A DNA stretch of 64,000 nucleotides from Candidatus Undinarchaeota archaeon. Its GTDB lineage: Archaea; SpSt-1190; JASMDC01. Numbering within the stretch: the first letter of the stretch is position 1; every line of letters begins with the position of its first letter. The notes beneath the pieces were generated by a model that made no database searches, had not been told where the DNA came from, and saw only the letters and a list, made by a program, of their open reading frames with translations. Shown one piece after another: positions 34,169 to 55,544 of this stretch. The stretch covers positions 1-64,000 of the forward strand of contig CAZFHY010000001.1 in NCBI GenBank assembly GCA_964519305.1, in the 5' to 3' direction. Position numbers and translations under genes: made by a program.

Positions 34169-36982
34169 ATGGCACTTCATCGTCTGTTACGTACCATCTC
34201 AGCCATTGTCCTCGTCGCCCTGCTCCTGACACCGGGCAGCGCTATAGTCGCGGACGAGGTCGTTGAGGAGGTGGACATATCCACATTGAAGTACGCTCAG
34301 GTGGACATCACTTATGTTCTCCCGAGCCGCTACCTCGATACACTCGATGACCAGCTGCTCAACAGCAGATGCTCCCTGCTATCCTCGGTGACCGGGTGCC
34401 GTGCTTCGATCTACGGTGGCGAGGAGAAGGTAGTGTTCAACATGCTCGAGCCCAGCCCCGAGATAGGGGTCAGGGACCTCGACGTCCAAGAGGACCTCAT
34501 CAACGTCGAGTTCTACTTCAAGTACCTGCCCAAGCAATACGTGCTCGCCCAAGGACTGATGGTGCGTGAGCGAGGTATGAAGATCAGGTACCCCACCCAC
34601 ACGACCGTGCTCAACTACGTCCTGGACATGCCCCTCCTCTCGCAGTTCGCCATTTCCAGGCGGGCCGTCCCGTTCTCGGCCACGGTGGACAAGACGTCCT
34701 TCGTCATCGGTGAGACCATCCCTATCCCAAAGATCACAGAGGGCATATTCTGCATCGCCGCCCTCCTGGACGGCGACACGGTCATCGTCCGTGATTACTC
34801 GAGCACCTGTTCACCCTTCGAGCTCGGGACCACTTCGTTCATCCCCGAGGGCAGCTACGACCTATACCTCATCGCGCTCACCGGGAGCGCGACCAAGTAC
34901 AACAGTATCCGGGTGGACCTGGAAGCGTCCGATATCCCGACCTATCTGGATCTGGACAAGGACAGGTGCAACCTGGGCGAATCCTTCGTTGTGAAGGTCA
35001 CATCCTCCGAGGACCTCGACCGGTGCGAGGTGCACTTCATGGACCCCTTCGGCAACCAGGTGGAGGAGCGCACTTCGTACGATTGTGAGAACATAATCCT
35101 CGGAACGTCTCCCGCCCTGGTCCCTGGACGCTATCTCGTCAAGGCATATTCCTGGAAGGGAGAGGAGCGCGGGGCAGCTTCTATGAGCATCACCCTCGTG
35201 GGACAGGGCTACTCCTCCTCCGAGATCACCACAGACAGCAATGTGTACAACGCGGGCGACACTATCGAGGTGTACTCCGAATCCGAGGGCGACTACTGTC
35301 TGACCGAACTCTTCGACTCAGAGTACAACAAGGTCGCCGAGGCCGAATCTGTCGGATGCGAAGCCGTCGACATCCCGGCCCATGACAGTCTTGAGGCGGG
35401 CAACTACCTGATCAAGACCACCGTGAAGAAGAACGGACGCATCATCTCCGTGGCCCCCAAGGGGATCGAGATCAGACCCTGGTCGGAGCATAGCGGCACG
35501 GTCCAGTCCGACCTCTGCCAGCAGGGCAAGCTCTTCATCCTGGGCGAGCGCTTCCCCTGCATATCCACCGGCGAGGTGTGCATCCCGTCATCCTCATCCA
35601 AGCCGTTATGCCTCTGTTTCGACCAGAGCGGTAATCCGAAGGACTTTTGCGATTACGGCCACACATGCGGCCAGACCGGCTGCTCCGAAACGAAGGTGTT
35701 CAAGACGCCTTTCATCATAATCCGCGACCAGGGTAATTGCCTGGCACGCAAGGGCGACCAGACCATCTCCTGCATCGAGCTGGGCGAGATCTGTGGCGGT
35801 AACTGCGTGTGCATCAACGAGAAGGACCAGCCTCTATCTTCCTGTGTGGGTGGCGACTCCTGCACGTTCGAGGGATGCAGTCGCTCCACCATCGAGTTCG
35901 AGGTGACGTCGGTCAGTCCGGAAAGCGTGCGCGCGGACGAGCTGCGTGCCGGAAGTGCCGTTTCGTGGAAAGGACATATGCATATGGACGACCAGCTCTT
36001 CTCAGGGAGCAGGTCCCAGCTAGAGTTCACCATGCGACTGGGAACGATCACGCTCGAGGACGCTGACATCGAGGAGGAGTACGTCTCCGCCGCAGAGGGC
36101 TGGAAGGTGACAGGCACCTTCTCGGGCGACCTTGATCCCGGTAACTACGAGACGTTCCTCATGGTGAAGCGTGGCGAGGACGTCCACATCATGCGCAAGG
36201 CATTCCAGGTATGGTACCCCTTGTCCGAGAGCGCGCTGAACATCGAGCTCCGGTACGTCAATCCCGAGAAGATGTCCTATCGGGAGCTGGGTCTGGAAGG
36301 TGGAGGGATCGAACTGCACGCTCGTGTGACCAACCATGCGGGCCGTGCGCTCACCGGTAAGGACCTGCCACCCGATGTGTTCAATATGAGCCTTGAGGGT
36401 GCTGCTACGTCGCTCGGTGCGTTCTCCATGTCCGAACCGAAGTTCGACAAGAAGCTCGGTCTGTGGGTCATCAAGGGTACGTTCTACACGAAAGTGAGGA
36501 TCACCATCAGCAGGCTCGAACTTTCCATCATGCACCTGGGCAGGACAGGCGAGGCCACATCGCCCTTCGAACTGCTCGAGCACGTGCCACTCGAGATAAC
36601 CATCAGGACAACCGAACCTGGGAGCAACAAACCCATCTTCCACCTCATGGCCATCACCGGGTTCGACATCGATGTGTACGTGGACATCGAAGGCTCGTCC
36701 TCGCTGCAGAGCAAGGACTTCAATATCAAGATCGGGCACGTCGAGATCAAATCCGACTGTGGTACGGCGGACGGGGACCCCTGCATCGGTTACATAGTGG
36801 ACACCGAAAGGGGCGTGCGCATCCACCTCTCCAACATCAAGCTCTGTGAACTGGAGGACGTGTCATCCGACAGCGTCCGCAATCTCAGCATCGAGATCGA
36901 GGAGATGGGGCAGAAGGCCAGGGCCAAGACCCAATTGCGCATCGTCAGCAATCCCGGCAAGTACCAAGTGAGGTGTTCCTGA
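34169..36982 (+). CDS. Exported 937-aa Ig-like/Cys-rich protein, paralog of 4799
   Basis: Shared EEV.D.STL, IRYPTHTTV, CLAR.G..T..C.E.GEICG..CVC and C-terminal NPG...RC. Confidence 0.8.
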   Translation: MALHRLLRTISAIVLVALLLTPGSAIVADEVVEEVDISTLKYAQVDITYVLPSRYLDTLDDQLLNSRCSLLSSVTGCRASIYGGEEKVVFNMLEPSPEIGVRDLDVQEDLINVEFYFKYLPKQYVLAQGLMVRERGMKIRYPTHTTVLNYVLDMPLLSQFAISRRAVPFSATVDKTSFVIGETIPIPKITEGIFCIAALLDGDTVIVRDYSSTCSPFELGTTSFIPEGSYDLYLIALTGSATKYNSIRVDLEASDIPTYLDLDKDRCNLGESFVVKVTSSEDLDRCEVHFMDPFGNQVEERTSYDCENIILGTSPALVPGRYLVKAYSWKGEERGAASMSITLVGQGYSSSEITTDSNVYNAGDTIEVYSESEGDYCLTELFDSEYNKVAEAESVGCEAVDIPAHDSLEAGNYLIKTTVKKNGRIISVAPKGIEIRPWSEHSGTVQSDLCQQGKLFILGERFPCISTGEVCIPSSSSKPLCLCFDQSGNPKDFCDYGHTCGQTGCSETKVFKTPFIIIRDQGNCLARKGDQTISCIELGEICGGNCVCINEKDQPLSSCVGGDSCTFEGCSRSTIEFEVTSVSPESVRADELRAGSAVSWKGHMHMDDQLFSGSRSQLEFTMRLGTITLEDADIEEEYVSAAEGWKVTGTFSGDLDPGNYETFLMVKRGEDVHIMRKAFQVWYPLSESALNIELRYVNPEKMSYRELGLEGGGIELHARVTNHAGRALTGKDLPPDVFNMSLEGAATSLGAFSMSEPKFDKKLGLWVIKGTFYTKVRITISRLELSIMHLGRTGEATSPFELLEHVPLEITIRTTEPGSNKPIFHLMAITGFDIDVYVDIEGSSSLQSKDFNIKIGHVEIKSDCGTADGDPCIGYIVDTERGVRIHLSNIKLCELEDVSSDSVRNLSIEIEEMGQKARAKTQLRIVSNPGKYQVRCS

Positions 36983-38850
36983 TGGTCGAGCGCACACGAG
37001 GTCAGATGGCTCTCATCGGGCTCGCGGCGGTAGCACTGGTAGTCATCATGATCGTTTACATGATGAGCGGTAGCCGCAGGACCGAGACCGAGATCAATAT
37101 CAAGGACATCGAGTCCGCCGGCCTCAAGAGCGAGCTGGAGAAGGTGGAGAGCATCGTTACCGATATCTTCGAGGAGTCGATCCACTCCTCTGCGCTCGAG
37201 CTGGCACGTCATGGTGGGTATGCCCGCGGCAATGTACCGCCCCGCAATCTCGGGCTCACGCCGTACTGGTTCTACAAGGGGAACATCATCAACATCCCCT
37301 CGGTAGAGGTCATGACGGGCATGATGAAGGAGCGTATGGAATGGCGCATCCAGAACGATCTCAATGACCTGCGCAAGAACCTGCGGATGGACATGTTCCA
37401 CATCGGCCAGCCACGGGTCACCGTCACTCTCACCGATGTCCAGATCAACGCTGACCTGGAGCTACCTATCGAGGTAGTGCAGGGCGAGAACAAGGTCAAG
37501 ACCAAGATCGAGTTCACTCACACGGCACAACTACGTCTCAAGCTGTTACGCGACCTGGCCGAGAAGTACGTGCGTAATTACGCTGAAGTGCGTTACATGG
37601 AGCAGCAGTGGATGCACGGCGTCAACAACGATCCGCGGGTACCTAACACCCACGGTGCCGAGCCGGACGCGACGGGTCCCTGTACGACCTGCCAGGTCGT
37701 CAAGTACACGAAGCCGGGTATGACCTCAGCACTGCAGGAGCACGCTCAGCTCCACTCGTCAATGGAGCTCCAGCGTGCACGCAACCTACCTTTCTTCCAG
37801 AAGGACGCCAGTGGCGATCAGGTCAAGGACATCCAGCTCGACTTCAAGGCCAATGAGAAGGACCTCGAGTTCGAGTTCACCGCGAATCCGGGCGAGGCCT
37901 GCGAGAGCAACACCGAGGTATACCTCATCGAGCAGGGCAACACGGGCAGTGCGCCCATGGGCTCGTGCCAACATATGACCGTGACCTCCTATGACCTGTT
38001 CATGTTCCCGGTGGAGATCATCATCAGGGACCTGCTCAAGATCGGCATGGTCATGACCACAGAGACGGCCGAGACGACGACGGACCAGGACGGCAGCGCG
38101 ACAAAGAGCGTCGTCAAGCCCCTTGAGTTCCATATCGCCCTGAACTCCTACTTCACGACCGGTGATCCCAAGGCAGTGGACGGCTCTGTCAACGATCCTG
38201 AGACCGTCGATAACCTTTGTCAGGGAGCCTGCTCTATCGACATAAAGGCTACAAATGTCAACGAGGGCATGCTGTTCATCGACTCGTGCGAGTACGGGCC
38301 CGGCAACCACTTCACTGAGGCCAACGTACCCTGCGGTATCCACACCATCACGTTCAAGTCCATCGATCCCGCGGGCAAGGCCAAGTGGGTGAAGAGGGAC
38401 CCCATCACGGACAACTACCAGCTCGAGATCGAGGTCCAGGACTATGCATCGGTGAAGGGCACCATCAACATGAAGAACAAGGTGTACTGCACCCAGTCCA
38501 AGCGCGTGGAGGACAAGGGCCTCGAGACACTGGCGTACTACGAGGGCGATCCGCCTCGGACGATCAGGCTGTTCTTCTACCCCGTCAACCACAGGCTGGG
38601 AGAGATGGTGCATGCCGACATCGACGAGAACGGTGCCTACGAGGTCCCCGTTATCAATCCCGGGACATATCTGGTGCTTGCCTTCCCCACCGAGGACGCC
38701 TCACACCGCCCTACGCACAAGGTGCTGCCAAAGGGCCTGGTGATGGACATCGAGCCAGGTACTAACGACCTGAACATCGAGCTGGAGCCCATGCGCGTGG
38801 AGAAGGTCGGCGACAAGTACGTCAACGTGGTCGGAACCGAGGACTGTTAG
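36982..38850 (+). CDS. Large pilin-like protein 3
   Basis: RTRG|QMALIGLAAVALVVIMIVY; TGATG overlap; ELARHGGY...PYWFYKG; ends TEDC. Confidence 0.75.
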   Translation: MVERTRGQMALIGLAAVALVVIMIVYMMSGSRRTETEINIKDIESAGLKSELEKVESIVTDIFEESIHSSALELARHGGYARGNVPPRNLGLTPYWFYKGNIINIPSVEVMTGMMKERMEWRIQNDLNDLRKNLRMDMFHIGQPRVTVTLTDVQINADLELPIEVVQGENKVKTKIEFTHTAQLRLKLLRDLAEKYVRNYAEVRYMEQQWMHGVNNDPRVPNTHGAEPDATGPCTTCQVVKYTKPGMTSALQEHAQLHSSMELQRARNLPFFQKDASGDQVKDIQLDFKANEKDLEFEFTANPGEACESNTEVYLIEQGNTGSAPMGSCQHMTVTSYDLFMFPVEIIIRDLLKIGMVMTTETAETTTDQDGSATKSVVKPLEFHIALNSYFTTGDPKAVDGSVNDPETVDNLCQGACSIDIKATNVNEGMLFIDSCEYGPGNHFTEANVPCGIHTITFKSIDPAGKAKWVKRDPITDNYQLEIEVQDYASVKGTINMKNKVYCTQSKRVEDKGLETLAYYEGDPPRTIRLFFYPVNHRLGEMVHADIDENGAYEVPVINPGTYLVLAFPTEDASHRPTHKVLPKGLVMDIEPGTNDLNIELEPMRVEKVGDKYVNVVGTEDC

Positions 38851-39059: not shown

Positions 39060-40319
39060 TCACTGGCTCTGGCTCCACTGCTGGAACTGCTCCGCCCACT
39101 CGCCCTGGTTCGTAGGCTCTTCAGGCGGCGGCTCGTACGATGGCTGTTCTTCCCTCGGTTCGTTCGACCCAGTCATCATCTTCACGCGCTTGATCAGTTC
39201 CTTGATGCGCGGCATCTCCACACCGGCCAGCAGGATGACCACCTCGAACCGGTCGTAGCTGGAGATGACGGCGTTCCCCCAGCGCACGGTACCGCCGGCG
39301 CCATCATTGAGCTGGCTCCCGAGCCAGCTGATTGCCTCGTGGAGCTCGGAGACCTTGGGCGAAGTGGGTCCGGCGACGATGAGCGCCGCTGAGCGGGCAC
39401 TGGTGTACACCGCCTGGGTCGTCGTCCCCTGGAGCACTGCCATCTGGACCAGATTGGTGAGGCTCGAGCGGGCGTTCCCCTCGGCGTCCACGGGCGCTTC
39501 TGCCCGTCCCAAGCAGCACAGCACGCCGTAGTCGCTGGTCTTTGCCTCGAGGATCGTGTTCTTCAGGTCAGTGGAGTCCATGACCAGGTCCTGCTCCTGC
39601 GAGATGGGCAGGCCCGAGATGGTCAGCAGCTTGATCTGCTTGAGGATCTCCCGGTTGATCTGGTCGAAGATCTCGTTGATACCCACCCGCCCACGGACAT
39701 GGGCAGGGATGCGCTCGTAGAACCACTCGTTGTCGGCGATGATGAGCCCGTCCAGGCGGGGCAGGAGGTTCTTCATTCCCCATAGTGCGTTCTCCTCGTA
39801 CCGGCCGCTCTCGTACCCGAAGGGCAGCAGCCCGATGCCGATCTTGACGAAGTCGTTCGGGTTAACGACGTGGCGCTGGATGAACACCTCGTCGATTATG
39901 TCCGCCGCCACCGGTGAGCACCCGCAGCCGGAACCGCCGCCAAGGGAGGTGACGATAAAGCAGAAGTGGGGCATGATGCCGCGGCCAAGGGTGTTGACTG
40001 TGATGGTGTTTCGGATGAGGTCGCGGTTCTGGTTGGCCACACCCTTGCAGTACTCGGGATTGCCGCCGCACCCCTTTCCTCCGCCGATCAGGATGCGCGA
40101 CTCCTCGGGGATGTTGAGGATGTTGAGGTCGCGGATGTTGGTGTTCAGGGCCACCGAGGCGAAGTAATCGTCCACACGCAGAGTGGAGATGCCCATGGAA
40201 CGGGCGAAGGTCAGCATCTGGCTGACCACCGAGCGCTGGAACTCGGCCACGGCGTCGAGCACGCGGGTGCCCCCCTGACCCAGCCCCATTGCGAATATCT
40301 GGCTTCCTGAGACGTCCAT
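39060..40319 (-). CDS. cetZ: Tubulin/FtsZ-superfamily GTPase, CetZ-like
   Basis: GLGQGG; ALNTN..DL; GKGCGGNP; SLGGGSGCG signature; LLPF..E; IIADN; T7-like MDSTDLKNTI; VVILLAGV.MPRIKEL. Start 40319 or 40328. Confidence 0.8.
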   Translation of the reverse strand: MDVSGSQIFAMGLGQGGTRVLDAVAEFQRSVVSQMLTFARSMGISTLRVDDYFASVALNTNIRDLNILNIPEESRILIGGGKGCGGNPEYCKGVANQNRDLIRNTITVNTLGRGIMPHFCFIVTSLGGGSGCGCSPVAADIIDEVFIQRHVVNPNDFVKIGIGLLPFGYESGRYEENALWGMKNLLPRLDGLIIADNEWFYERIPAHVRGRVGINEIFDQINREILKQIKLLTISGLPISQEQDLVMDSTDLKNTILEAKTSDYGVLCCLGRAEAPVDAEGNARSSLTNLVQMAVLQGTTTQAVYTSARSAALIVAGPTSPKVSELHEAISWLGSQLNDGAGGTVRWGNAVISSYDRFEVVILLAGVEMPRIKELIKRVKMMTGSNEPREEQPSYEPPPEEPTNQGEWAEQFQQWSQSQ

Positions 40320-40337: not shown

Positions 40338-41309
40338 TCAGCCGAACAGGTCCTCCTCGAGCGTCTTCTTCTTAGGCGCGGCCCGCTCGCCGAAGCGTAC
40401 GTCCTCGAGCTCGCCCATGAGGTCGGCCTCGAGACTGACGGCCTTACGCGCTTCTTGTTCGGCCCCTGCACGGACCTCCATGAAATAATTATATATCTTC
40501 TGATAACGCGGCCGGAAAGTCAGGGAGAACAGTTCATAGTCCGGTGTGGGCGCGATGAAGGGGCGCACGCCTGGGATTATGCCAGGTGGTTCCTCGGGCA
40601 TGCACACGTAGGAGAACGAGTTATCGGTGAGGGAGAAGTCGGAGGCGCACACGTTCTGGAGGATGGCCGTGTTCAGGTCCATGCCCTGGAGGCTCTCTGC
40701 GAACGACGGTACGCACAGTTCGCCGGTGAGGCCGTCCGAGGCCAGGTACTGGCGCATGCCGTACTTGCTGTTGAGGCCCCTGAGGATGTCGAGCATGTAC
40801 TGGACGAACGTGTCCATGCGCTCGAACGCCGTGTGCTGGTCGAGCGCCTTTACCTTGCTCGTCAGTCGCTCCTCCTCGAGCACGATGACCAGGTCGGCGG
40901 TCTCTTTCATGTCCACCATCGTGGAGATTAGGTGGCGCTTGGCCTGCATGGGGTACTCCTTCATGTAGGGGAGCAGGAGGACGGCGCAGAGGAAAGCGTC
41001 GGGCTGGTACTGGCGGACGCGCTCGAAAGCGTGTGCGGCCAGCGCCCCGTACTCGGTGGTGGGATTGAGCAATGCCACGCTCATGCCATCGGTCATGTCC
41101 AGGGAGTGGTCCACCCAATCCCGGACAAGCCCCATCTTGAATTCGCGCTTGCTGGTGTCGTCGGAGATCTCGATCTTGAGGCATTTATTCCGATCGAACT
41201 CCTTGAGGTCGCTGATGCTCGCCGACGCCAGTGCGAAGGGTGCGCGGTGGCGCTCAGTGTACCGCTCGATCCATGTGGCGCCGAAGGTCCCGAGCCCGAT
41301 GAGGTTCAT
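40338..41309 (-). CDS. Degenerate tubulin/CetZ-fold protein lacking the GGGTG signature
   Basis: MNLIGLGTFG; AVLLLPY..E; ADLVIVLEEERL; acidic tail ending LEEDLFG. ATGA overlap with the upstream gene sets the start at 41309. Confidence 0.6.
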   Translation of the reverse strand: MNLIGLGTFGATWIERYTERHRAPFALASASISDLKEFDRNKCLKIEISDDTSKREFKMGLVRDWVDHSLDMTDGMSVALLNPTTEYGALAAHAFERVRQYQPDAFLCAVLLLPYMKEYPMQAKRHLISTMVDMKETADLVIVLEEERLTSKVKALDQHTAFERMDTFVQYMLDILRGLNSKYGMRQYLASDGLTGELCVPSFAESLQGMDLNTAILQNVCASDFSLTDNSFSYVCMPEEPPGIIPGVRPFIAPTPDYELFSLTFRPRYQKIYNYFMEVRAGAEQEARKAVSLEADLMGELEDVRFGERAAPKKKTLEEDLFG

Positions 41310-43105
41310 AAGCCAACCCACTCCCGCATGATACGCTTCCAGATGAACTTGCGTGCATGCTCGATCAATTTGAACCTGACGGTCACGTACATGATGCCCC
41401 CGGTCACCGCGAACAGGATGAGCAGGAACAGGACCCGCTGGCGGAACCGGTTCACCTCTACCGCGCAGGTGCCGTCCTCCTGTCTGACGTTGTCGTTCAT
41501 GAGCCCCTGGAACGTACCGAGCTCCTCGCACGCCTGGGGCATGCACACGTCGTTCTCGCAGTAGAAGCCCTTGATGCACCCGCAGTCGCTGCAGCAGTAC
41601 GGCTTCTCGATATCGAGGCAGAGGGTGTCACCGCACTTGATGTCGTACGCTCGGCGAGGTGCGTCGGTGAGGGTGCCCGTGAACCTCAGCCCTTCTTTGA
41701 AGCTCATACCGTCGGGGAGAGACATGGTCACCCATTCGTCCCCCTGGGGGAGTCGGATGCGCCACTCGCCGGCGTTCTTCGTCCTGTCCATGAGGCCCGG
41801 GACGGTGAAGGTGACGTTCTGCTCCTTGACCAGCATCCCCGCGATGGGCGTGACGTCGATATCGTTGCCGTGGACCGTTCCGTTGAGAGGGGATAGGAGG
41901 GCGGGGCCCGTGGCGTTCTCCATCCGCCATTCTACCAGCGACAGCACGCCGTCGGGATTGGCGGAGAGCACGTCGGCCTCGCCGTAGGCCTTCATGTCCT
42001 CGATCTCGCGCAGACGGAGCACGGCATGGCCTGAGCCGTCGGATAACAGGCTGAGAGTGATGTTACGCCTTCTGCTCGGCGGGAAGAGCACCTCCAACCG
42101 GTGCTGGCCTCCACGGTACGCACTCCCGTCCACCTCTACGTGCATTACCGCTTCATTGTGCATGATGTACTTCAGCCCGGGGGTAGCAGGAGCGCGTGTC
42201 CGGTACGCTACCGCCTTGCGCTCGCCAGCACCGAGGCTGAGGTTGACGGATAGGACGTTACCTACACCCTGGATATACACCGGCGCCAGCGCACCACCAA
42301 GGTACTCCAGGCGCGGGTTCGTCGGCTCGTCCAGCCGGATCTTCACGGATTGACGCCCCTGGTTCACCAGTGTGAAGTTTACCTGGAAACCCTCGCCCTG
42401 GACGGCCTTTGCTGGCATCGACCGGCCCATGGACAGCTTCGGGCGTTCCAATGCCCAGGTGATGAGCGTACGAGCGATGGGGAGCTTCTCGCGGAGCACG
42501 CACAGCCTCCTCGAGCAGTTCAGGCCGGGGACAACGTGAATGCCAGGCGCCTCGACATCGAACTTGAAGATGAACCATGTGAAATCGTCGAACCGTGAGC
42601 CGTTGATCCGCAGGGCATAGGGGAAGACCTCCTTGTGGACGTCCTCCAGCGGTGCGGCGGCCGTGTACACCAGGTCGTGCCGGGCGTAGGGGCCGAAGGG
42701 CAGTTCCCGGGTGTGCAGCGCTACAAGCTCCTCCCTCATTCCTGCAGCCTCGCGTGTCAGGTCTGCGCCCATGACCGAGACGTTCATGGCCCCCAGGTCC
42801 TCGCTCAGGTGGTTAGCCAACCGGATAATGGCCTTGCGCACGACCGTGTCATTGGGGCCAAGGACCACCGTGTAGAGCACCTCGTCCACGGTCACCGTGG
42901 TGAGGTCCATCGACCATATGTCAGCGTCGTCCGCAGCAGGCTCCTCGTGGATTTCGACGGGGGCGTCCGTGACATTGGACGGGACATCGGTGGCGTTGAC
43001 CGGGAGGTCGGTGGCGTTGACAGCAGCGGTCCCGTTGTCATCCTGTGCTACTGCCAGGGACATGAGGAGGAGGGCCATCACCAGGATAATCGTAGTTCGC
43101 GCCAT
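41306..43105 (-). CDS. Type I membrane surface protein (Ig-like domains, Cys-rich module, C-terminal TM)
   Basis: Signal MARTTIILVMALLL; NATD repeats (N-glycosylation sequons); FQVNFTLVNQG; CGDTLC...CCSDCGC..G..C; TM plus basic tail. RBS GGTGGTGA. Confidence 0.8.
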   Translation of the reverse strand: MARTTIILVMALLLMSLAVAQDDNGTAAVNATDLPVNATDVPSNVTDAPVEIHEEPAADDADIWSMDLTTVTVDEVLYTVVLGPNDTVVRKAIIRLANHLSEDLGAMNVSVMGADLTREAAGMREELVALHTRELPFGPYARHDLVYTAAAPLEDVHKEVFPYALRINGSRFDDFTWFIFKFDVEAPGIHVVPGLNCSRRLCVLREKLPIARTLITWALERPKLSMGRSMPAKAVQGEGFQVNFTLVNQGRQSVKIRLDEPTNPRLEYLGGALAPVYIQGVGNVLSVNLSLGAGERKAVAYRTRAPATPGLKYIMHNEAVMHVEVDGSAYRGGQHRLEVLFPPSRRRNITLSLLSDGSGHAVLRLREIEDMKAYGEADVLSANPDGVLSLVEWRMENATGPALLSPLNGTVHGNDIDVTPIAGMLVKEQNVTFTVPGLMDRTKNAGEWRIRLPQGDEWVTMSLPDGMSFKEGLRFTGTLTDAPRRAYDIKCGDTLCLDIEKPYCCSDCGCIKGFYCENDVCMPQACEELGTFQGLMNDNVRQEDGTCAVEVNRFRQRVLFLLILFAVTGGIMYVTVRFKLIEHARKFIWKRIMREWVGL

Positions 43106-43107
43106 GA

Positions 43108-44673
43108 TCACCACCCCAGGTACCAGTAGGCCTCCTCGAACTTTTTGACGTACTCCTCGGGCGTGTGCCGCCTCAGGTTCTCCGACTCGACCACGAACTT
43201 GAAGCGGACGATACCGCCTCCTCCACCGATCCGCCATCGGACGAAGAACAGGAACGATACGAAGGCGAAAGCGAACGATACCGCCACGAAGGTGCACTCG
43301 AACCCGTAGATCTCGCACACTAGGCCCGCAGGATGGAGGGTGACCGGGAATGTCTCGTTCCCCGCCTCGAAGCCACGGTAGTAGATACGACCGATGAGGT
43401 TGCAGGCGAGCGGTTCACGGGTCGCGGGCGTGCTCACGTTGCACCGGTCTATACCGTACTCGCCAGCTCCGCAGTGTCGGTCGAGCAACGTCTCGTTCCC
43501 TCCGCAGCGAAGGAAGAGCTCATAAGGAAGACCGGGGTCAGTGAGGCTGGCGAACACGATGGTACTTGCGTTCCCCTCGATGTCCTTTGCTACTGGCCGG
43601 AACTGCTCGAAAGCGGGTGAGAACTCCCTCACCTCGATCTCCAGCCCCTCCTCCTGCTCGTCGCCGTCCGTGGAGAAGGTCACCGATCCCTCGTAGATGA
43701 TCCGGCCCTCGTACTCGTGGAGTGGCAGGCGTCCCAGGTGGAGCGGGCAAGTGATCTCGTCGAGGATGTTGGTGCAGGCCTGGTCCACCGGAAGGGTCTG
43801 ATTGACGTACGCGGTGTTGTTCCAGGTGAGGATGATCGAGATCGTGTTGTCGCGCTGGAGTATATCGTTCCACTTCTCAATGGATGTGTTTACGACCACG
43901 GGATCGTACTGGTTCACGAGCCGGGTGTAGTTGGTAAGAGTGAACAAGGGGTCCTCGGCGTACACGACCGCGAAGGGCGTCTCCATGTAATCGACGATGC
44001 GCGATCCAGTTACGATCTCAAGGCGCGCCGTGTACCTCCCTCGCTCGTCGGGCACGTCCACGCTCACCGCATGTCGGATGCTGCCCTGCATATCGCAGCT
44101 GAGGTCGATCGGTTGATGGCTGCGCGCAACGACCTCCCGGCCCGGCCCGAGCACGTACAGGGTCGTGTTGTAGCTCACACCGTACTCCGGGCGTCGGATG
44201 ACGTAGTCGATATAGAGCTGCTCTCCGGGGCCGAACACGTCCTTGCTCAAGCCAGCCTCGAGCGCGGTGTTGACGAAGAACACGGTATGGATGTTGAACG
44301 GGATGGACTCTGACACGGGGGACGTGACATCGTAGGTGAAGTAGATCGTGTGGTCACCAGGGGTGCTGCATAGCGGGGCCTTCGTCAGGATGGTGAACGC
44401 ACGCTCGACGTCCTTGCGCACCTCGAGCTTGGGCAGACCGCCCGGGTAATCGGTACCCCAGTGGTACTGGGAGTTCGTATCGTTCTTCCGGTTGGCGATG
44501 CCGTACGCGGGCTCATCGATAAGACCGCGTACCGTGACCTTGTGGACGCCCTGGTCGCCAGGGAGGAGCACGTGGCGTACGTTCTGTACGTCGACGAGGA
44601 CCTGCTCGCCCGCAGAGACGCTCGCAGCGCACAGAGCGCATACGAGAACGAGAACAAGAAGCTTGGACGGCAA
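43108..44673 (-). CDS. Type I membrane surface protein with Ig-like domains
   Basis: Signal peptide; LSKDVFGPGE...GRYTARLEI beta-sandwich; many NxT sequons; C-terminal TM with cytoplasmic tail. Confidence 0.8.
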   Translation of the reverse strand: MPSKLLVLVLVCALCAASVSAGEQVLVDVQNVRHVLLPGDQGVHKVTVRGLIDEPAYGIANRKNDTNSQYHWGTDYPGGLPKLEVRKDVERAFTILTKAPLCSTPGDHTIYFTYDVTSPVSESIPFNIHTVFFVNTALEAGLSKDVFGPGEQLYIDYVIRRPEYGVSYNTTLYVLGPGREVVARSHQPIDLSCDMQGSIRHAVSVDVPDERGRYTARLEIVTGSRIVDYMETPFAVVYAEDPLFTLTNYTRLVNQYDPVVVNTSIEKWNDILQRDNTISIILTWNNTAYVNQTLPVDQACTNILDEITCPLHLGRLPLHEYEGRIIYEGSVTFSTDGDEQEEGLEIEVREFSPAFEQFRPVAKDIEGNASTIVFASLTDPGLPYELFLRCGGNETLLDRHCGAGEYGIDRCNVSTPATREPLACNLIGRIYYRGFEAGNETFPVTLHPAGLVCEIYGFECTFVAVSFAFAFVSFLFFVRWRIGGGGGIVRFKFVVESENLRRHTPEEYVKKFEEAYWYLGW

Positions 44674-44699
44674 CCTATCACAACACCACAGCGGGTATC

Positions 44700-44707
44700 T
44701 TTATATC
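44700..44707. promoter_or_regulatory. TATA box midway between divergent operons
   Basis: TTTATATC about 25 nt from both TTG 44673 (-) and ATG 44731 (+) in a 57-bp gap. Confidence 0.55.
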
Positions 44708-44730
44708 TCTTGCACGAAAGGAAGCCCCTG

Positions 44731-46677
44731 ATGGCCTCCCTGAAGCTCGACAGGAACAGGTGCACGAAGTGCGGAAAGTGCGTGGTCGCATGTCCGAACA
44801 ATGCCATCGTCATGCGTAACTTCCCTGCGTTCTGCAAGCACTGCGACCTCAAGGCCGCACCGTGCTACCAGGCCTGCCCGCTGGGCGCCATCGTGGACGT
44901 AGGTAACGGTATTCTCAAGGTGGACGTGAACCGCTGCGATCCCTACCAGTGCAAGAAGGAGTGCCAGAAGTGGTGTCAGTGGGATGGCGTGTTCGTGTTC
45001 GGCGACAAGGCCAAGAAGTGCGATCTGTGCTTCGACTACCAGAACCAGCCCAACTTCATCCCCAAGTGCATCGAGGTGTGCGACGCCAAGGCCATCACCA
45101 CCGACCTCATGCAGGAGGTCGTGCTCGACTACGCAGGATGGAGCGCCGAGTCCATTCCCCAGGAGATCATCGCAGAGGTCCTCCAGAGCTTCACCTACGG
45201 CCAGGTCGTCAAGGTGCAGGGCCAGCCGGTCCCGTACTACTACGTCAACTCGCTACCCCAGCTCACCGACTGGGCCCAGACCAAGCTCCTGGGTCTCACC
45301 ATCAAGAAGTACATCGACACCGGCAAGGCGGACCAGGACCCGTTCTCCTCGCTGATGATGATCATGCGCAAGTCCGCCCAGTGGGTGGGCACCAGCGTGG
45401 ACGAGAACATGCTAAAGGAGCTCGCCAACATCGCTCTCATGAACACGAAGGGCTACGGGCCCTTCGACGTCCTCCTCGAGGACGACCAGCTGGAGGAGTT
45501 GATGTGCATCGGCCTCGGTAAGGAGAGGCCAATGTATGTCTACCACCGCGAGTACGGGATGCTGCGGACCAACCTGTTCTTCCCCGACGAATACATGGAC
45601 TTCACGGTGGACCCACCGGAGAAGAAGTCCGGCGAGGAGGTCCTGTGGAAGATCATCGAGAAGATGATCGAGCCCATGGGGGAGCGTATCGACCGCCAGC
45701 ACCCCAGGGTCAACGCGCAGCTGCCGGACGGCTCCCGTCTCCACGCGTGCATCAAACCAATGGGATTCTCCGGACCGTCGGTGACGATCCGAAAGTTCCG
45801 GGCCGCACCGTTCTCGCCCATCGACACCATCAGGTTCAACACCATCTCTCTGGAGGCCGTGGTGTACTGCTGGATCGCAATGGAGAGCGAGATCTCGATG
45901 ATCGTGGCCGGAAACACAGGTTCCGGAAAGACCACCTCGCTCAACGCATTCTCTACGTTCATCCCTCCCGAGGAGCGCATCCTCATCCTCGAGTCAACGC
46001 CCGAAATCAATCTGCCCCACCCGCACAAGGCACGTCTGGTCACCGTCAACAACGCTGACCCGCCCATCGGTATGCAGGACATCATCGAGGACACGCTGCG
46101 TATGCGGCCCGACCGTGTGGTAGTAGGAGAGGTCCGGAGCGGCCCAGAGGCACAGGCGTTCATGAACTCGGTACTGGCAGGTCAGGCACGCGGTTCCATG
46201 TGCACGTTCCACGCACAGGACGCAGTATCTGTCGTCAAGCGTATGAAGAACCCTCCCATGAACATCTCACCTCTCGACCTGCAGGTCCTGGACCTCGTCT
46301 TCGTCCAGCGACGTATGTCGCGGGTCGAGGGCAGCAAGCGGAAGCAGATCCGTCGCGTCGTCGAGATCGCCGAGATCGACAAGCATAATATGAGCGACGA
46401 GGGCGTACCGGTCATCCATCCGATCTATCGCTACAATCCGGACACCGATGTCGTCGAGCGCGTGCACTCGGGTCTGTCCCCGCTAGAGGAGCGCATATCC
46501 AAGTACAACCTCTGTCTCGACGAGGGGCAGTTCTGGGGCGAGGTACAGGCGAGGACCAAGATGCTCAAGTACCTGATGGCCAACAACATCCGTGACATCA
46601 AGGTCTTCATGGACTACATCATCCAGTACGGTACGGATCCTGCTTTCAAGCAGAGCATAATCAACATGAACATCTGA
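44731..46677 (+). CDS. TadA/CpaF/VirB11-family secretion ATPase with N-terminal multi-[4Fe-4S] ferredoxin domain
   Basis: CTKCGKCVVACP, CKHC...PCYQACP, CDPYQCKKECQKWCQ, CDLC...KCIEVCD; LPDGSR; TIRKF; Walker A GNTGSGKTT; LRMRPDRVVVGEVR; TFHA. Confidence 0.9.
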   Translation: MASLKLDRNRCTKCGKCVVACPNNAIVMRNFPAFCKHCDLKAAPCYQACPLGAIVDVGNGILKVDVNRCDPYQCKKECQKWCQWDGVFVFGDKAKKCDLCFDYQNQPNFIPKCIEVCDAKAITTDLMQEVVLDYAGWSAESIPQEIIAEVLQSFTYGQVVKVQGQPVPYYYVNSLPQLTDWAQTKLLGLTIKKYIDTGKADQDPFSSLMMIMRKSAQWVGTSVDENMLKELANIALMNTKGYGPFDVLLEDDQLEELMCIGLGKERPMYVYHREYGMLRTNLFFPDEYMDFTVDPPEKKSGEEVLWKIIEKMIEPMGERIDRQHPRVNAQLPDGSRLHACIKPMGFSGPSVTIRKFRAAPFSPIDTIRFNTISLEAVVYCWIAMESEISMIVAGNTGSGKTTSLNAFSTFIPPEERILILESTPEINLPHPHKARLVTVNNADPPIGMQDIIEDTLRMRPDRVVVGEVRSGPEAQAFMNSVLAGQARGSMCTFHAQDAVSVVKRMKNPPMNISPLDLQVLDLVFVQRRMSRVEGSKRKQIRRVVEIAEIDKHNMSDEGVPVIHPIYRYNPDTDVVERVHSGLSPLEERISKYNLCLDEGQFWGEVQARTKMLKYLMANNIRDIKVFMDYIIQYGTDPAFKQSIINMNI

Positions 46678-46689
46678 GGGCCCAATCGC

Positions 46690-47967
46690 ATGACGGACGA
46701 CATGTTCTCGGTGAAGGCAGGCCAAGACAAGTCTTGGAACCAGGGGGCACAGGACTGGGCCCAGTCTCCCGGGCAGGCCAACCAAGGCTGGGGAGCACCG
46801 GCACCGCCGGCCATGCAACAGGCACCGAGCCACCCGCCCGGACCCATATCACCGCCGGCCATGCAACATGGACCCGGACCCATGCAACACGGACCTGGGC
46901 CAATGCAGCACGGACCCGGCCCTTCACCCATGGGAGGCGCTACGGCCCCCGTCGGTGGCGGCGACTGGTACTCGACGTCCGTTGGTGAACAGACACAGCA
47001 GACCACTGATGTCGAGGAAAAAGAGGCAGAGCAGCGCTCACGGTTCAAGTTCATGGGCCCAATGCTCCTGCGCATGGGCCCCGAGCGGATCAAGTGGTAC
47101 CGCCAGGCCTGTGATGCCGTGGAGTTCTTCATGTTCGCCGACGACTGGGTGCTTGTCTCCTCGCTGATAGGTATCGCTGTATTCGCCCTGGCGTTCCCGA
47201 TACTCACATCGCTATCTGACGCATTCATCATGATCGTCCTCGTCCCCGTGACCGGAGGCGGTGTGTTCGCCATCCTGATCTCATATCCTATCTTCAAGTT
47301 CGAGAGCCGCAAGGACGAGATCGAGACCAACCTCCCGGACGCCCTGTTCCAGGCGGCGAGCAATCCGCCCCGGACCCACTTCGTGGAGCTGCTGACGGGC
47401 CTGACGAAGATCGGGTACGGACCGCTGACCGACGAGCTGCGGGTCACGGTGAAGGAGATCGAGAAGGGCTCGTCCGTCAAGGAGGGTCTGGAGAAGCTCT
47501 CCGAGCGCAACCAGTCGAAGATCCTGGAGAGGGCCTGCTACCTCCTAATCCGGGCGCAGGAGCAGGGTGTAGATATCGTCGAGGCCCTGGCCGCCCTGGC
47601 CACGGACATCAAGGAGACCAAATACCTCCTGCGTGAACAGGCCGCGTCGCTCCAGCTCCAGAAGATCACACTTCTGGCAGCGGGGGCCGTCCTCATCCCC
47701 CTCATCCTCGGGTTCGTCGTAGGGCTGGCGGAGTCCATGGGCAATTTCAGCGAGGACAAGGCAGAGATCATCGCTGCACAGGTCCAGACGGTGCAACCAA
47801 TCTTCCTCGGGTACGTGGTCATCCACGCCCTCGAGGCGTGTCTGGCCATCGGCCGTCAGGAGGGCGATGCCAAGAAGGCCGTTTACTATGTGATCCCAGT
47901 GCTCCTGATCGCGATTATTCTGTTCCAGTACGTGGCCCCTCAGGCCATGATGATGTTCATGGGGTGA
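46690..47967 (+). CDS. TadB-like type II secretion system F-family membrane platform protein with P/G/Q-rich N-terminal extension
   Basis: IETNLPDALFQAAS; GYGPLTDEL; IEKGSSVKEGL; 5 TMs; follows the ATPase. Confidence 0.85.
   Translation: MTDDMFSVKAGQDKSWNQGAQDWAQSPGQANQGWGAPAPPAMQQAPSHPPGPISPPAMQHGPGPMQHGPGPMQHGPGPSPMGGATAPVGGGDWYSTSVGEQTQQTTDVEEKEAEQRSRFKFMGPMLLRMGPERIKWYRQACDAVEFFMFADDWVLVSSLIGIAVFALAFPILTSLSDAFIMIVLVPVTGGGVFAILISYPIFKFESRKDEIETNLPDALFQAASNPPRTHFVELLTGLTKIGYGPLTDELRVTVKEIEKGSSVKEGLEKLSERNQSKILERACYLLIRAQEQGVDIVEALAALATDIKETKYLLREQAASLQLQKITLLAAGAVLIPLILGFVVGLAESMGNFSEDKAEIIAAQVQTVQPIFLGYVVIHALEACLAIGRQEGDAKKAVYYVIPVLLIAIILFQYVAPQAMMMFMG
46861..46923 (+). repeat. 21-bp coding repeat, (MQHGPGP)x3
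   Basis: Three ATGCA(A/G)CA(T/C)GGACC... units. Confidence 0.9.
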
Positions 47968-47994: not shown

Positions 47995-48897
47995 ATGGAG
48001 GTGTACGAGCAGGAGAGCAGGTTCCGCCAGTTCCTGTTCACCTTCAATCAAGCGTTCGCCATCTCGAACCGCCTCCGGGAGAAGGACCGGAACGAGCTGT
48101 CGGTCGTCCTGCGCAAGGCGCGCATGGACTATGATCCTGAAGAGTACGTCACTCTCACCTACGTTGCATGGATCGCTTCGTTCTTCGGCGTACTCCTCGT
48201 CGGCGGTATCTTCGTCATCGCGCTCGGTGACGTCGTAGGCTACACCAACATGATCGTGGGCGACGCCATTCTCGCGTTCTTCGTGAGCACCATCGTCTAC
48301 TCCTACTCCAAGAGCTATCCGTACGGGGAGATCAAGGACATCGGCCTCCGGATCGAGGCGGAGCTGCCTTTCATGGTCCGGAACCTCGCCATCGAGCGCG
48401 AGATGGGCATCCCCATCAAGGACTCCTTCGAGAAGCTGGCCGAGGAGGAGGGGCTCCTGGGACGCGAATCGCGGGTCATCCTTGCCGAGATCGAGCGCGG
48501 CTACTCGGTGACACAGGCACTTCGCGCTTCCTGTCAGCGTACGGAGAGCCGGTTGTACGTGCGCACCATGGCACAGCTCACCCACGCCCTGGAGATAGGT
48601 ACCGAGATCAAGTCTGTGCTCAACGCCATGGCAAAGGAGGCCGAGACCAACCTTCGTATCGCGCTCAAGGAGTACTCGGGCAAGGTATCCACGCTCTCCA
48701 TCATGTACGTCATCGTGGCGGCCGTGGTCCCCGCCATCCTGGGCGCAGCGCTCATCCTCTCGGTGCTCTTCGAGGAGGGCTCCACCCAGCTCCTCTCCGC
48801 GGACATGCTCATGCTCCTCTACTGGGGCCTCTTCCCCCTGGCCAACTACACCATCCTGGCCGTCATGAAGCGGGGACAGCCGTACATAATGGTCTGA
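47995..48897 (+). CDS. TadC-like type II secretion system F-family protein
   Basis: LRKARM; IEAELPFMVRNLAIE...G; EIERGYSV..AL; LKEYSGK; 4 TMs. Confidence 0.85.
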   Translation: MEVYEQESRFRQFLFTFNQAFAISNRLREKDRNELSVVLRKARMDYDPEEYVTLTYVAWIASFFGVLLVGGIFVIALGDVVGYTNMIVGDAILAFFVSTIVYSYSKSYPYGEIKDIGLRIEAELPFMVRNLAIEREMGIPIKDSFEKLAEEEGLLGRESRVILAEIERGYSVTQALRASCQRTESRLYVRTMAQLTHALEIGTEIKSVLNAMAKEAETNLRIALKEYSGKVSTLSIMYVIVAAVVPAILGAALILSVLFEEGSTQLLSADMLMLLYWGLFPLANYTILAVMKRGQPYIMV

Positions 48898-49652: not shown

Positions 49653-50078
49653 TTACTCGTTTCCTGATGCCTTTCCGACCGCTTCCCGTGCGAACCTGGC
49701 AGCGTCCTCGAGGTCGCTCTCGTTCGGCCGACCCCAATTCACGATGAACAGGAACCGTCCCCTGCACAGGAATCCGTCCAGATATTTACCGCCTGCTTTC
49801 TCCACGGCCTGCTTCACGTCGTCAAATGTGTACGGGCTGCCAGCGTTCGTGGCGAAAGGGGCGATAATCTTACCGGACAGTTCGCTCTTGTTGAGCAGCT
49901 CCTTAATGCTGTCATGGGCCGAACCAGCATACACGCCGGACCCGAGGAACACCAGGTCCCCGTCCAGTGAGCTCACGTCCTGTGCGAGCAAAGCCTTCGT
50001 TCCGACCTCACTTGCGATTCGCTCGGCGACCTTCTTCGTGTTGGACCCTCGCGAATAGTAGACGACCTGTACATCCAT
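49653..50078 (-). CDS. Flavodoxin-family protein
   Basis: VVYYSRGSNTKKVAE; FLGSGVYAG; GRPNESDLEDAARFA. Confidence 0.9.
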   Translation of the reverse strand: MDVQVVYYSRGSNTKKVAERIASEVGTKALLAQDVSSLDGDLVFLGSGVYAGSAHDSIKELLNKSELSGKIIAPFATNAGSPYTFDDVKQAVEKAGGKYLDGFLCRGRFLFIVNWGRPNESDLEDAARFAREAVGKASGNE

Positions 50079-52122: not shown

Positions 52123-52437
52123 ATGCCAGCTGACGTCCTTATCCAGTTCAAGTTATCGCCAGGGCTCGTGTCCATGATCGACGAGGTGCTCGCCTCAGGG
52201 TTCTATGTCAACCGTACCGAGTTCCTCAGGGACGCCGTACGTACTCGACTGGAAGTGCTCCAGGAACACGGGCTTGCCAGGAAGTTACGGGCACACCGGA
52301 GGCCGGGACCCTCCGTCGTCACCGAGAACGTGCATACGGACCATGAGGACCTCTCACACCACGTTCACCACTGGAACGAACATCGCAGTGTCATGGGTGA
52401 CGTTCCGTCGACGGGGCGAGGGGAGGACACGCTCTAA
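52123..52437 (+). CDS. Ribbon-helix-helix (CopG/Arc/MetJ) regulator
   Basis: IQFKLSPGLVSMIDEVLASGFYVNRTEFLRDAVR; His-rich C-terminus. Confidence 0.85.
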   Translation: MPADVLIQFKLSPGLVSMIDEVLASGFYVNRTEFLRDAVRTRLEVLQEHGLARKLRAHRRPGPSVVTENVHTDHEDLSHHVHHWNEHRSVMGDVPSTGRGEDTL

Positions 52438-53606
52438 TCGGATGACGGAGAGGTATCATCGTCCGGTCGCAGCCCCTGTCGCGTCGACCATGCAGGCCAC
52501 AGCCGGCCCCACGGACCCCCGACATGGACCGTCGCCTCAGTGTGGGGGCAATACAGCTCACATTCCATGCAGAGCACGCACTCATCGCTGACCTCAAGGC
52601 CATCGCCCACACGGGATACGGCACCCCAGTCACACACAGCACGGCAGATCTTGCACCGGTCGACCCTATCGCAGCGGATGTCCAGCCGATAAAGCCCGAA
52701 CCGGCTCAAGAGGGCGGTGAGCGCGCCCATCGGGCACATCGTCGTACAGAAGCCCCGCCGCATCGTCAGCGCCAGGAGCGTCACGATGGCCGCTGCCGCC
52801 AACGCCAGCCGGGGATCGGGCGTGAGATAGAAGTAGGAGACGGGGCAGAACGAGCAGATCGCCATGTATCCGAACACGACCATCGCCCACAGTGCGACGG
52901 CCAAGACCTCGTACCTGACAGTAAGGGGACGGGGGACACCGCCCTTGGGCTGGTCGACGGCAGCGTCCACAACGTCGATCATGGTGCCTATGGGGCACAA
53001 CCATCCGCAGAACGCGCGTGAGGCAAGCAGCGAGAATCCTGCTGCGAGCACGGCGAGGGTAGCCCATGCACCGGTGAGATAGTACAGCTGCATCGAGCCG
53101 AACGGACAATCGAGCGCATTCCATGGCCCCGGGAGCCAGACCGGGGCCAGCGAACCGGTGTACGCCCACACATCGGCAGGTCCTGCCGCCAGTAAGAGGA
53201 AGATGAGGAGGACCGCCCCTTGTGACATCTGTCGCCACGTGAACCGTCGCGGTTTCCGTGGGACGACCAATGCATTGCGAGGGCAGGTGGCCGTGCACTC
53301 CTTGCACGTCTCGCACGCCCCGGTGTCAACCTCGAGCTCCCCGTCAACGGTGAGCGCGTCCTCGGGACAGGATAGGAAGCACGCTCTGCAGGCCTTCGTG
53401 CACTGTTCCTCGTCCACCGTCAGAGCGCCGTCGTCAATGGCGATGGCACCCTCGGGACAGGCCCCGATGCAGTTACCGCACTTGCTACAGCGGTCAAGGT
53501 CCACCGAGATGCGCCTGTCACGTACGGACAGCGCTCCCAGTTCGCAGCGTCCGATGCAGTCACCGCATCCGTCGCATACGTCCCTGAGGACCACCGGGAC
53601 GACCAT
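52434..53606 (-). CDS. Polyferredoxin-fused NapH/MauN-like membrane Fe-S protein
   Basis: Four N-terminal ferredoxin motifs; TMs; RAFCGWLCPIG; RGFCTTMCPMG; two C-terminal clusters. Confidence 0.85.
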   Translation of the reverse strand: MVVPVVLRDVCDGCGDCIGRCELGALSVRDRRISVDLDRCSKCGNCIGACPEGAIAIDDGALTVDEEQCTKACRACFLSCPEDALTVDGELEVDTGACETCKECTATCPRNALVVPRKPRRFTWRQMSQGAVLLIFLLLAAGPADVWAYTGSLAPVWLPGPWNALDCPFGSMQLYYLTGAWATLAVLAAGFSLLASRAFCGWLCPIGTMIDVVDAAVDQPKGGVPRPLTVRYEVLAVALWAMVVFGYMAICSFCPVSYFYLTPDPRLALAAAAIVTLLALTMRRGFCTTMCPMGALTALLSRFGLYRLDIRCDRVDRCKICRAVCDWGAVSRVGDGLEVSDECVLCMECELYCPHTEATVHVGGPWGRLWPAWSTRQGLRPDDDTSPSSD

Positions 53607-55483: not shown

Positions 55484-55544
55484 GTCCTTGATGGATGACT
55501 CCCATGACAACACTTATATTTCTTCCAAGACCACTCTTTTATTG

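Follow-up and report, generated by a model that had tools for sequence, protein, structure and literature searches.

Why should the ATPase of a surface-filament assembly machine begin with a multi-cluster ferredoxin fold? The question is raised by one gene in a stretch of 64,000 nucleotides (hereafter the window) that forms positions 1 to 64,000 of contig CAZFHY010000001.1 in the assembly GCA_964519305.1 of a Candidatus Undinarchaeota archaeon. In the product of this gene, a four-group ferredoxin fold and an intact secretion ATPase are genuinely fused; the fusion is conserved and under selection, and the gene stands in an operon with platform genes. A preliminary description, made from the letters of the DNA, had singled out the same gene, and both its coordinates (44731..46677) and its account of the product proved correct; it had also proposed that pilus assembly is gated by redox state, oxygen or iron, a reading which may be called plausible as a hypothesis. 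The gene and its parts are delimited as follows, A1 being a 65-row alignment whose rows were chosen for at least nine N-terminal cysteines.

44731..46677, plus strand: the whole ferredoxin-domain/secretion-ATPase fusion gene (P0001), 648 residues; from the open reading frame, its translation and Pfam/NCBIfam scans
44731..45105, plus strand: N-terminal ferredoxin domain, residues 1-125, with 16 cysteines in four groups; from cysteine positions, Fer4, profiles, Foldseek and conservation
45106..45636, plus strand: linker with G136-W137, then a FlaI-like N-terminal domain, residues 126-302; from A1 columns, the FlaI profile and the structures 2OAP and 4II7
45637..46341, plus strand: T2SSE ATPase core, residues 303-537; from Pfam T2SSE and invariant A1 columns

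The N-terminal ferredoxin domain

The first 125 residues hold 16 cysteines, against five in the other 523, and these form the four groups that had been noticed at the outset, at positions 11, 14, 17 and 21; 35, 38, 45 and 49; 69, 74, 78 and 82; and 97, 100, 113 and 117. Ferredoxin spacing is found in group I (CxxCxxCxxxCP), group II (CxxCx6CxxxCP) and group IV (CxxCx12CxxxC). Group III reads Cx4Cx3Cx3C in the window protein and likewise in its 96% ortholog L001, CxxCxxCxxxCP in a paralog of 818 residues and in most relatives, and Cx3CxxCx3C in P0224; judged from these sequences, its spacing varies within the fusion family. Each of the 16 cysteine columns of A1 is occupied by cysteine in 54-65 of the 65 rows, and none of the five cysteines of the ATPase part is ever the majority residue in its own column.

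Pfam Fer4 matches residues 6-26 with 31.3 bits against a cut-off of 21.1, and the N-terminal NCBIfam matches (DmsB, NrfC, TtrB, DsrO and HydN) all stay far under their cut-offs, the best being DmsB with 36.3 against 214.1 bits. The best solved relatives by sequence are the polyferredoxins MvhB and FwdF; PsrB aligns over residues 23-121 and EbdB over residues 33-103, that is, over groups II-IV. An AlphaFold2 model of residues 1-144, built from a 45-row alignment, reached a mean predicted local distance difference test score (pLDDT) of 77.2 and a predicted template-modelling score (pTM) of 0.66, residues 132-144 being disordered. When this model was compared with the Protein Data Bank by Foldseek, 21 chains were retrieved at E<=0.001, and those listed are all four-cluster electron-transfer subunits (E 1e-6 to 1e-4; template-modelling, or TM, scores of about 0.45-0.55): the small subunits of tungsten aldehyde oxidoreductases (AOR; 9mqx_G/E, AorA 8c0z_C and WOR5 6x1o_B), HycB (7z0s_B), HycB3/4 of HDCR (7qv7_A/B), ArrB, PsrB, NarH and FdnH. 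Such modest TM-scores may be expectable for a cluster-free model of moderate confidence.

The DmsB/HycB-type arrangement recognized in the preliminary description is thus borne out by profiles, Foldseek and cysteine conservation, and we infer a DmsB/HycB-type four-group ferredoxin fold that is predicted to bind up to four [4Fe-4S] clusters. With the four-cluster subunits at large (DmsB, HycB, HydN, NrfC, PsrB, NarH, FdnH and the small subunits of AOR and WOR5) the domain shares the four cysteine groups, their order and the fold; it differs from them in the low scores of the equivalog models, in the absence from the locus of their catalytic and membrane partners, and in its atypical group III.

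A single gene read in one frame

The plus strand is open from 44461 to 46677 with no stop between the two domains, in agreement with the single uninterrupted frame first described, and the ATG at 44731 yields the protein of 648 residues; a database gene call, P0002, starts further upstream and comprises 701 residues. Two features lie on this upstream side.

44700..44707, no strand: TATA-like box TTTATATC, read from the sequence; putative promoter element
43108..44673, minus strand: divergent protein of 521 residues, signal peptide, C-terminal membrane anchor, without Pfam family; from the open reading frame and third-position substitutions

The intergenic gap of the divergent genes measures 57 bp (44674-44730) and contains this one near-palindromic box, which lies 24-31 nucleotides from the ATG at 44731 and ~27-34 nucleotides from the minus-strand start at 44673 and is unchanged in L001; it may constitute a shared bidirectional promoter element for the ATPase operon and the gene of the 521-residue surface protein, both giving leaderless transcripts. 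In the relatives, the start lies ~10 residues ahead of the first cysteine. Comparison with L001 places 14 of the 24 substitutions between 44461 and 44673 at third positions of the divergent minus-strand gene, not of the plus frame; downstream of 44731, third positions of the plus frame account for 17 of 24 substitutions over the iron-sulfur (Fe-S) part, for 19 of 26 over the N-domain and for 63 of 79 over the C-domain. Three observations hence support the start at 44731, namely the placement of the box, the starts of the relatives and the substitution pattern upstream of 44673, and on these grounds the 701-residue call is probably too long. The codon-position pattern continues unbroken across the domain junction, and by this measure purifying selection acts on the Fe-S part in the reading frame that it shares with the ATPase.

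Contigs (Logan) of four coded sequencing runs were compared over 44500-46700. Those of X1 and X5 contain the whole stretch in identical form, and cannot be counted as independent because they are possibly the window's own source; a contig of X13, which belongs to another study, covers the whole stretch with 155 substitutions and no gaps, and a contig of X9, from a third study, spans the domain junction (44671-45695) with 49 substitutions and no gaps. Across the compared contigs no insertion or deletion is listed in this stretch; a single X9 contig skips 159 bases at 45798-45958, and the shorter flank of this joint has only 24 letters, fewer than the tool's reliability hint asks for. That two genes were joined by misassembly, sequencing error or an over-long gene call is scarcely conceivable, since the only related issue that we found is the P0002 call starting too far upstream, whereas the same fused frame recurs in L001, in the paralogs L002 and L003, in the metagenome locus L023 and in database clusters by the dozen, gapless contigs across the junction come from at least two further studies, and the codon-position pattern is continuous. 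A misassembly around ~45100, against which the preliminary description had advised a check, is excluded by these crossings without insertions or deletions and by the predominance of third-position substitutions in the comparison with L001.

The ATPase part and its operon

Pfam T2SSE (PF00437) matches residues 303-537 with 112.1 bits against a cut-off of 24.9. The ATPase motifs are intact in the sequence, comprising a Walker A motif GNTGSGKT at residues 394-401 (nucleotides 45910-45933), an ESTPE box at 421-425, LRMRPDR at 456-462 and a His box at H494; G394, T396, S398, G399, K400, T401, E421, T423, P424, E425, L456-R462 and H494 are invariant in all 65 rows of A1. Ahead of the core, G136 and W137 are nearly invariant, being shared by at least 90% of the A1 rows, and the FlaI profile aligns from residue 208. 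The best NCBIfam model is the FlaI equivalog (NF058587), with 231.4 bits against a cut-off of 550, followed by TadA, VirB11 and BasE.

A full-length AlphaFold2 model (mean pLDDT 90.6, pTM 0.74) retrieved Archaeoglobus fulgidus GspE (2OAP) as its best Foldseek match (E 2.4e-38, target TM 0.80), then FlaI (4II7, 4IHQ) and then TadA/CpaF proteins including 8RJF. With A. fulgidus GspE and Sulfolobus acidocaldarius FlaI/ArlI the protein has in common the two-domain fold over residues ~140-648 (E 2e-38 to 2e-34, target-normalised TM 0.70-0.80, 22-27% identity) and the Walker A, Glu/Asp and His boxes; it differs from them in residues 1-~135, to which nothing in those structures corresponds. The alignments to the solved archaeal ATPases 2OAP and 4II7 span ~505-535 columns of the 648-residue model, and therefore the first ~135 residues are without counterpart in these structures. 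The complete VirB11/TadA-type ATPase announced beforehand is accordingly found as a two-domain ATPase of FlaI/GspE/TadA type at residues ~140-648. The accompanying statement that characterised archaeal assembly ATPases lack a ferredoxin domain stands insofar as 2OAP and 4II7 match only the part that follows the Fe-S domain; it had overlooked AapX, a separate Fe-S protein discussed below.

The gene is followed on the same strand by two others.

46690..47967, plus strand: platform protein 1, 425 residues, T2SSF at residues 235-342; from Pfam/NCBIfam scans
47995..48897, plus strand: platform protein 2, 300 residues, T2SSF at residues 128-248; from Pfam/NCBIfam scans

Platform protein 1 begins 13 nucleotides past the ATPase stop and platform protein 2 a further 27 nucleotides past platform protein 1. 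System 1 (Epd-like) of the archaeal type IV filaments is defined, in the part of PMC13705601 at hand, by an ATPase and two platform genes in one locus, and the layout found here, an ATPase followed by two separate T2SSF genes, is the same. Judged by gene layout only, the gene would thus encode the assembly ATPase of an Epd/Tad-like system 1 filament machine, presumably co-transcribed with its two platform genes. Beside the operon, no gene for a short pilin of Epd type was identified. A complex prediction for the Fe-S domain (alignment A2), the two platform proteins and four 4Fe-4S ligands gave indecisive scores of 0.07 and 0.00 against a mark of 0.32.

An assignment to the archaellum motor FlaI/ArlI was rejected because the FlaI equivalog score is under its cut-off and no archaellin matches above cut-off in the genome; the neighbours, moreover, are the two T2SSF genes and not arlH/arlJ. 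As a separate observation, the first ~110 residues of platform protein 1 (46690-47020) form a low-complexity tail rich in Pro, Gly, Gln and Met that includes PAMQHGPGPMQHGPGPMQHGPGP repeats.

Distribution and evolution of the fusion

Whether the fusion is frequent among uncultured archaea had been left as a question by the preliminary description, and architecture searches answer that it is common there. A first homolog search yielded 7946 matches among 7998 scored candidates, 120 of which were listed; among the matches listed, 64 of the 119 non-self clusters at 90% identity are fused, in the sense of at least nine cysteines in the N-terminal extension, and most of these have exactly 16. The source names of the family are mostly Diapherotrites/Iainarchaeum (Iainarchaeota), Micrarchaeota, Norongarragalinales and plain 'archaeon', with one 'Methanopyri archaeon'. 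When a profile of 65 fused sequences was searched against 1.84 billion representatives at 50% identity, 52,319 proteins were retrieved at E<=0.001 and 6,124 at E<=1e-30; among the best 150 of these matches, 33 contain a 140-residue stretch with at least nine cysteines, 28 of them with at least 12, so that roughly 30 fused clusters at 50% identity can be given as a lower bound from sequence counts.

The architecture has left traces in automatic annotation, as product names of the Joint Genome Institute (JGI) already read 'Flp pilus assembly CpaF family ATPase/Fe-S-cluster-containing hydrogenase component 2', and for many fused relatives the precomputed Pfam columns give PF27713. A metagenome scan with A1, which relies on generic ATPase patterns, found one fused locus among 80 (L023), and in this one fused metagenome relative examined the gene is directly followed by a T2SSF-like platform gene. 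The 80 loci, which are mostly those of distant relatives and of which 79 have an ATPase-like open reading frame, included no split form, as no open reading frame within 3 kb of the ATPase carries two or more CxxCxxCxxxC motifs. A search with residues 1-140 alone returned only the protein's own cluster from 11 candidates; its word filter cannot reach divergent N-domains, which makes it uninformative on stand-alone relatives.

A FastTree phylogeny of the ATPase core was computed for 115 sequences and midpoint-rooted, five matches with a Walker A outside the pattern and P0002 being left out. The window protein and P0003-P0005 form one group, whose sister is a large clade where 58 fused forms are interspersed with many unfused ones; tandem double ATPases and a few others fall outside that clade. 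The interleaving of fused and unfused forms suggests an old fusion with repeated loss of the domain, and some 'unfused' rows may be shortened gene calls. There are also members that keep the domain and have lost cysteine groups, P0143 being without groups I and II, and P0209 and P0234 having 10 cysteines each. On account of both the interleaving and these losses, the Fe-S domain looks like an accessory module, not part of the motor.

The tandem double ATPases deserve mention in their own right: P0006-P0014 and P0122 are relatives of ~1035-1154 residues with two complete secretion-ATPase units per polypeptide, P0006 and P0122 having two Walker A motifs each, and such tandem ATPases are absent from the part of the 2026 census (PMC13705601) at hand.

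Genome and lifestyle of the host

The genome to which the window belongs (G000, where it is C1:1-64000) comprises 42 contigs that add up to 3.63 Mb; its completeness is rated at 99.8% and its contamination at 4.3%. The phylum has 17 genomes in the collection, and the 15 outside this genus are of 0.6-1.2 Mb, against 3.8 Mb for the congener G006; a relative of a DPANN lineage with so large a genome, and possibly free-living, would merit attention of its own. Among the matches listed for the phylum, fused forms occur only in these two genomes, with two in each, and none of the other 40 begins before query residue 155. Of the seven T2SSE matches in G000, six exceed the cut-off, and the Fe-S domain is confined, among the FlaI-like ATPases of this genome, to the window gene and one paralog.

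G000:C1:136436-138892 (= L010:9436-11892), minus strand: Fe-S/ATPase fusion paralog, 818 residues, ~50% identity

This paralog has a ~165-residue N-terminal tail rich in Pro, Lys and Ala. No T2SSF gene lies beside it; its neighbours encode a membrane protein of 406 residues and a coiled-coil protein of 286 residues, neither with a convincing Pfam match. T2SSF gene pairs adjoin ATPases on C18 and C12 as well as in the window, and Peptidase_A24 has four matches in the genome, none of them in the window.

At its rated completeness, the genome gave no match to archaellin above cut-off, nor to McrA, COX1 or cytochrome bd, an absence of match being no proof. In the window, Mtd and Ftr of the tetrahydromethanopterin (H4MPT) pathway are encoded at 30689-31525 and 31537-32400 (plus strand), and together with the missing McrA they suggest an archaeal one-carbon pathway of Wood-Ljungdahl type without methanogenesis. 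An anaerobic lifestyle is suggested by the lack of COX1 and cytochrome bd matches and by the Mtd, Ftr, two further polyferredoxins and flavodoxin of the window, which would fit a non-methanogenic strict anaerobe.

A possible role for the ferredoxin domain

What we infer about the domain, namely its cluster binding, its position on the hexamer and its role, may be put together as follows. With up to four [4Fe-4S] clusters per subunit, and up to 24 per hexamer, the domain would lie against the FlaI-like N-domain at its N-terminal face, the site of docking or regulatory extensions in other secretion ATPases. Once its clusters are assembled and in an appropriate redox state, the ATPase would engage its partners and drive filament assembly; oxygen, oxidative stress or iron shortage would oxidize the clusters or lead to their loss, and would thereby turn the machine off or change its output. 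Redox conditions would in this way govern the production of surface filaments in an archaeon that appears to be strictly anaerobic. We favour, tentatively and at slightly less than even chances, such a cluster-dependent accessory module, regulatory or docking in kind, which would make assembly conditional on anoxic, reduced and iron-replete conditions, because the domain is evolutionarily dispensable, would occupy the position of regulatory extensions and belongs to an apparent strict anaerobe, and because the Aap pilus needs an Fe-S protein. A further formulation, possible but in our view somewhat doubtful, takes the hexamer with its up to 24 clusters for a redox-coupled machine, in which either the ferredoxin pool or oxygen would switch the assembly of surface filaments and large adhesin-like proteins, or, in the bolder version, ATP hydrolysis would be coupled to electron transfer through a wire to partners at the membrane platform.

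Several points weigh against an accessory sensor of this kind. A sensor needs one cluster, and four strictly conserved groups are rather what one expects of an electron wire, or else of a fold that simply requires all its clusters; in view of the unusual Cx4Cx3Cx3C spacing of group III, the fourth cluster of this particular protein may be atypical or absent. The cysteine conservation in A1 is partly circular owing to the selection of its rows, the contrast with the five cysteines of the ATPase part being still informative, and the family tree is a FastTree topology only, midpoint-rooted and with support values not inspected.

A purely structural module, in which the clusters or some of them would only hold a rigid N-terminal docking or spacer fold without any signalling, is unlikely, and it is the alternative that survives best. 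P0143, P0209 and P0234, which keep the domain after losing one or more cysteine groups, speak in its favour, as do the many close relatives that have no such domain altogether. The nearest parallels would be the tetracysteine zinc motif of bacterial GspE/PilB and the Fe-S domain of ABCE1. A structural module would likewise accord with PMC13705601, where the N-terminal extensions of archaeal type IV filament ATPases, which vary, are proposed to serve as surfaces for contact with the partners specific to each subsystem. Four [4Fe-4S] clusters would, however, make a costly and oxygen-labile spacer, and most members retain all 16 cysteines.

The same strict conservation of four groups fits an electron wire, which would lead from a cytoplasmic donor, ferredoxin or flavodoxin, to a partner at the machine and serve redox chemistry on exported cysteine-rich surface proteins or ATP-coupled electron transfer. 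All top fold matches are electron-transfer subunits with a chain of four clusters, among them HycB3/4 of HDCR and AorA, both reported to assemble into polyferredoxin filaments. Surface proteins nearby terminate in cysteine-rich motifs, e.g. CDCDCIY and ..EDC, and within 10 kb downstream of the gene lie a flavodoxin (49653-50078) and further polyferredoxins, including a membrane polyferredoxin (Fer4 and Fer4_5; 52434-53606, minus strand). Nonetheless, we consider a wire improbable, as the operon encodes no catalytic redox partner and the lineages without the cysteine groups, or without the whole domain, evidently still use the ATPase; to our knowledge, no secretion ATPase moves electrons.

Should the accessory module that we favour be a redox switch, the fusion family would provide a direct redox or oxygen link to surface-filament assembly in anaerobic archaea, including many DPANN lineages that depend on cell-cell contact, and it may help to explain the need of the Sulfolobus Aap pilus for AapX. 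If ATP hydrolysis were coupled to electron transfer, the hexamer would be an ATP-driven redox device of a kind not known in the superfamily.

Relation to described filament systems

With Epd/system 1 and the bacterial Tad machinery (TadA/CpaF-TadB-TadC), the locus has in common the two platform genes after the ATPase, CpaF as next-best fold and, to judge by motif only, candidate substrates with R-G/A-Q ahead of a hydrophobic stretch; it differs from Epd/system 1 in that the ATPases described there are without a reported Fe-S domain, and in that the candidate substrates here have 600-622 residues and no short pilin is seen. Another parallel may be AapX (arCOG07320), an Fe-S protein encoded in the Aap pilus operon of Sulfolobus and needed for assembly, according to the parts of PMC11178785 and PMC13705601 at hand. 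Compared by description only, the two cases are alike in that an Fe-S protein is encoded together with an archaeal pilus ATPase in one operon; AapX differs in being a separate polypeptide of a different subsystem.

The latest census (PMC13705601) states, in the same part, that archaeal type IV filament systems offer no evidence of fused ATPase genes, a statement that the fusion family and the tandem double ATPases qualify. Neither this nor the other census of archaeal type IV filaments that was searched, main texts only, mentions the Fe-S fusion; that of the latter, PMC4858521, contains no occurrence of 'Fe-S', 'ferredoxin', 'iron-sulfur' or '4Fe-4S'. No paper on an Fe-S/ATPase fusion was found in the literature covered, that is, in main texts accessible without subscription. 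The fusion is, then, a widespread, automatically annotated and apparently undescribed variant of archaeal type IV filament ATPases, and we know of no Fe-S-bearing type IV filament ATPase that has been characterised.

That N-terminal extensions regulate type IV filament ATPases has precedents in the binding of c-di-GMP by MshE and in the docking of GspL to GspE. A mechanochemical ATPase with an N-terminal ferredoxin-like Fe-S domain, serving as a moving structural element, is found in ABCE1/Rli1, from which the present protein differs in that ABCE1/Rli1 has two clusters and not four, belongs to the ABC superfamily and has another cellular role.

The surface-protein neighbourhood

Upstream of the operon, the following genes accompany the divergent 521-residue protein.

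41306..43105, minus strand: second large signal-peptide protein with a C-terminal anchor, ~600 residues counted from the Met ahead of the signal peptide, without Pfam family; from the open reading frame and Pfam
36982..38850, plus strand: protein of 622 residues with a class-III-signal-like N-terminus (..RTRGQ and ~22 hydrophobic residues); from a motif scan

The latter has paralogs of 31-36% identity at 7528-9330 and 2714-4564 (plus strand), the three proteins having 600-622 residues; the N-termini of all three contain R-G/A-Q followed by ~22 hydrophobic residues, which is a resemblance of motif only, and have a conserved C-terminus ending in E-[DK]-C. They are candidate substrates of the ATPase or pilin-like proteins, a tie to which proximity alone would point. 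By the same token of proximity, the first 45 kb of the window, largely a surface-protein island, plausibly encode cargo or filament components.

Cassettes are repeated within this island, a signal-peptide protein of 909 or 937 residues (4799-7528 and 34169-36982, plus strand; 31% identical) being followed by one of the proteins of 600-622 residues. Three giant paralogs without Pfam family, also on the plus strand, comprise 2141 (9332-15757), 1991 (16089-22064) and 2629 residues (22075-29964); their C-terminal ~640 residues are 54-59% identical and end in CDC[DE]C[IV]Y, and residues 339-755 of the third are homologous to the 600-residue pilin-like family. On the far side of the operon, a Fer4 protein (55425-56156, plus strand) is followed by a DUF362 protein (56153-57103, plus strand). 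A CetZ-type tubulin (Pfam Tubulin and CetZ_C) at 39060-40319 on the minus strand adjoins the surface-protein and pilus genes, and next to it a protein of 323 residues (40338-41309, minus strand), which belongs to no family, has an N-terminus, MNLIGLGTFG.., that faintly resembles the start of a tubulin.

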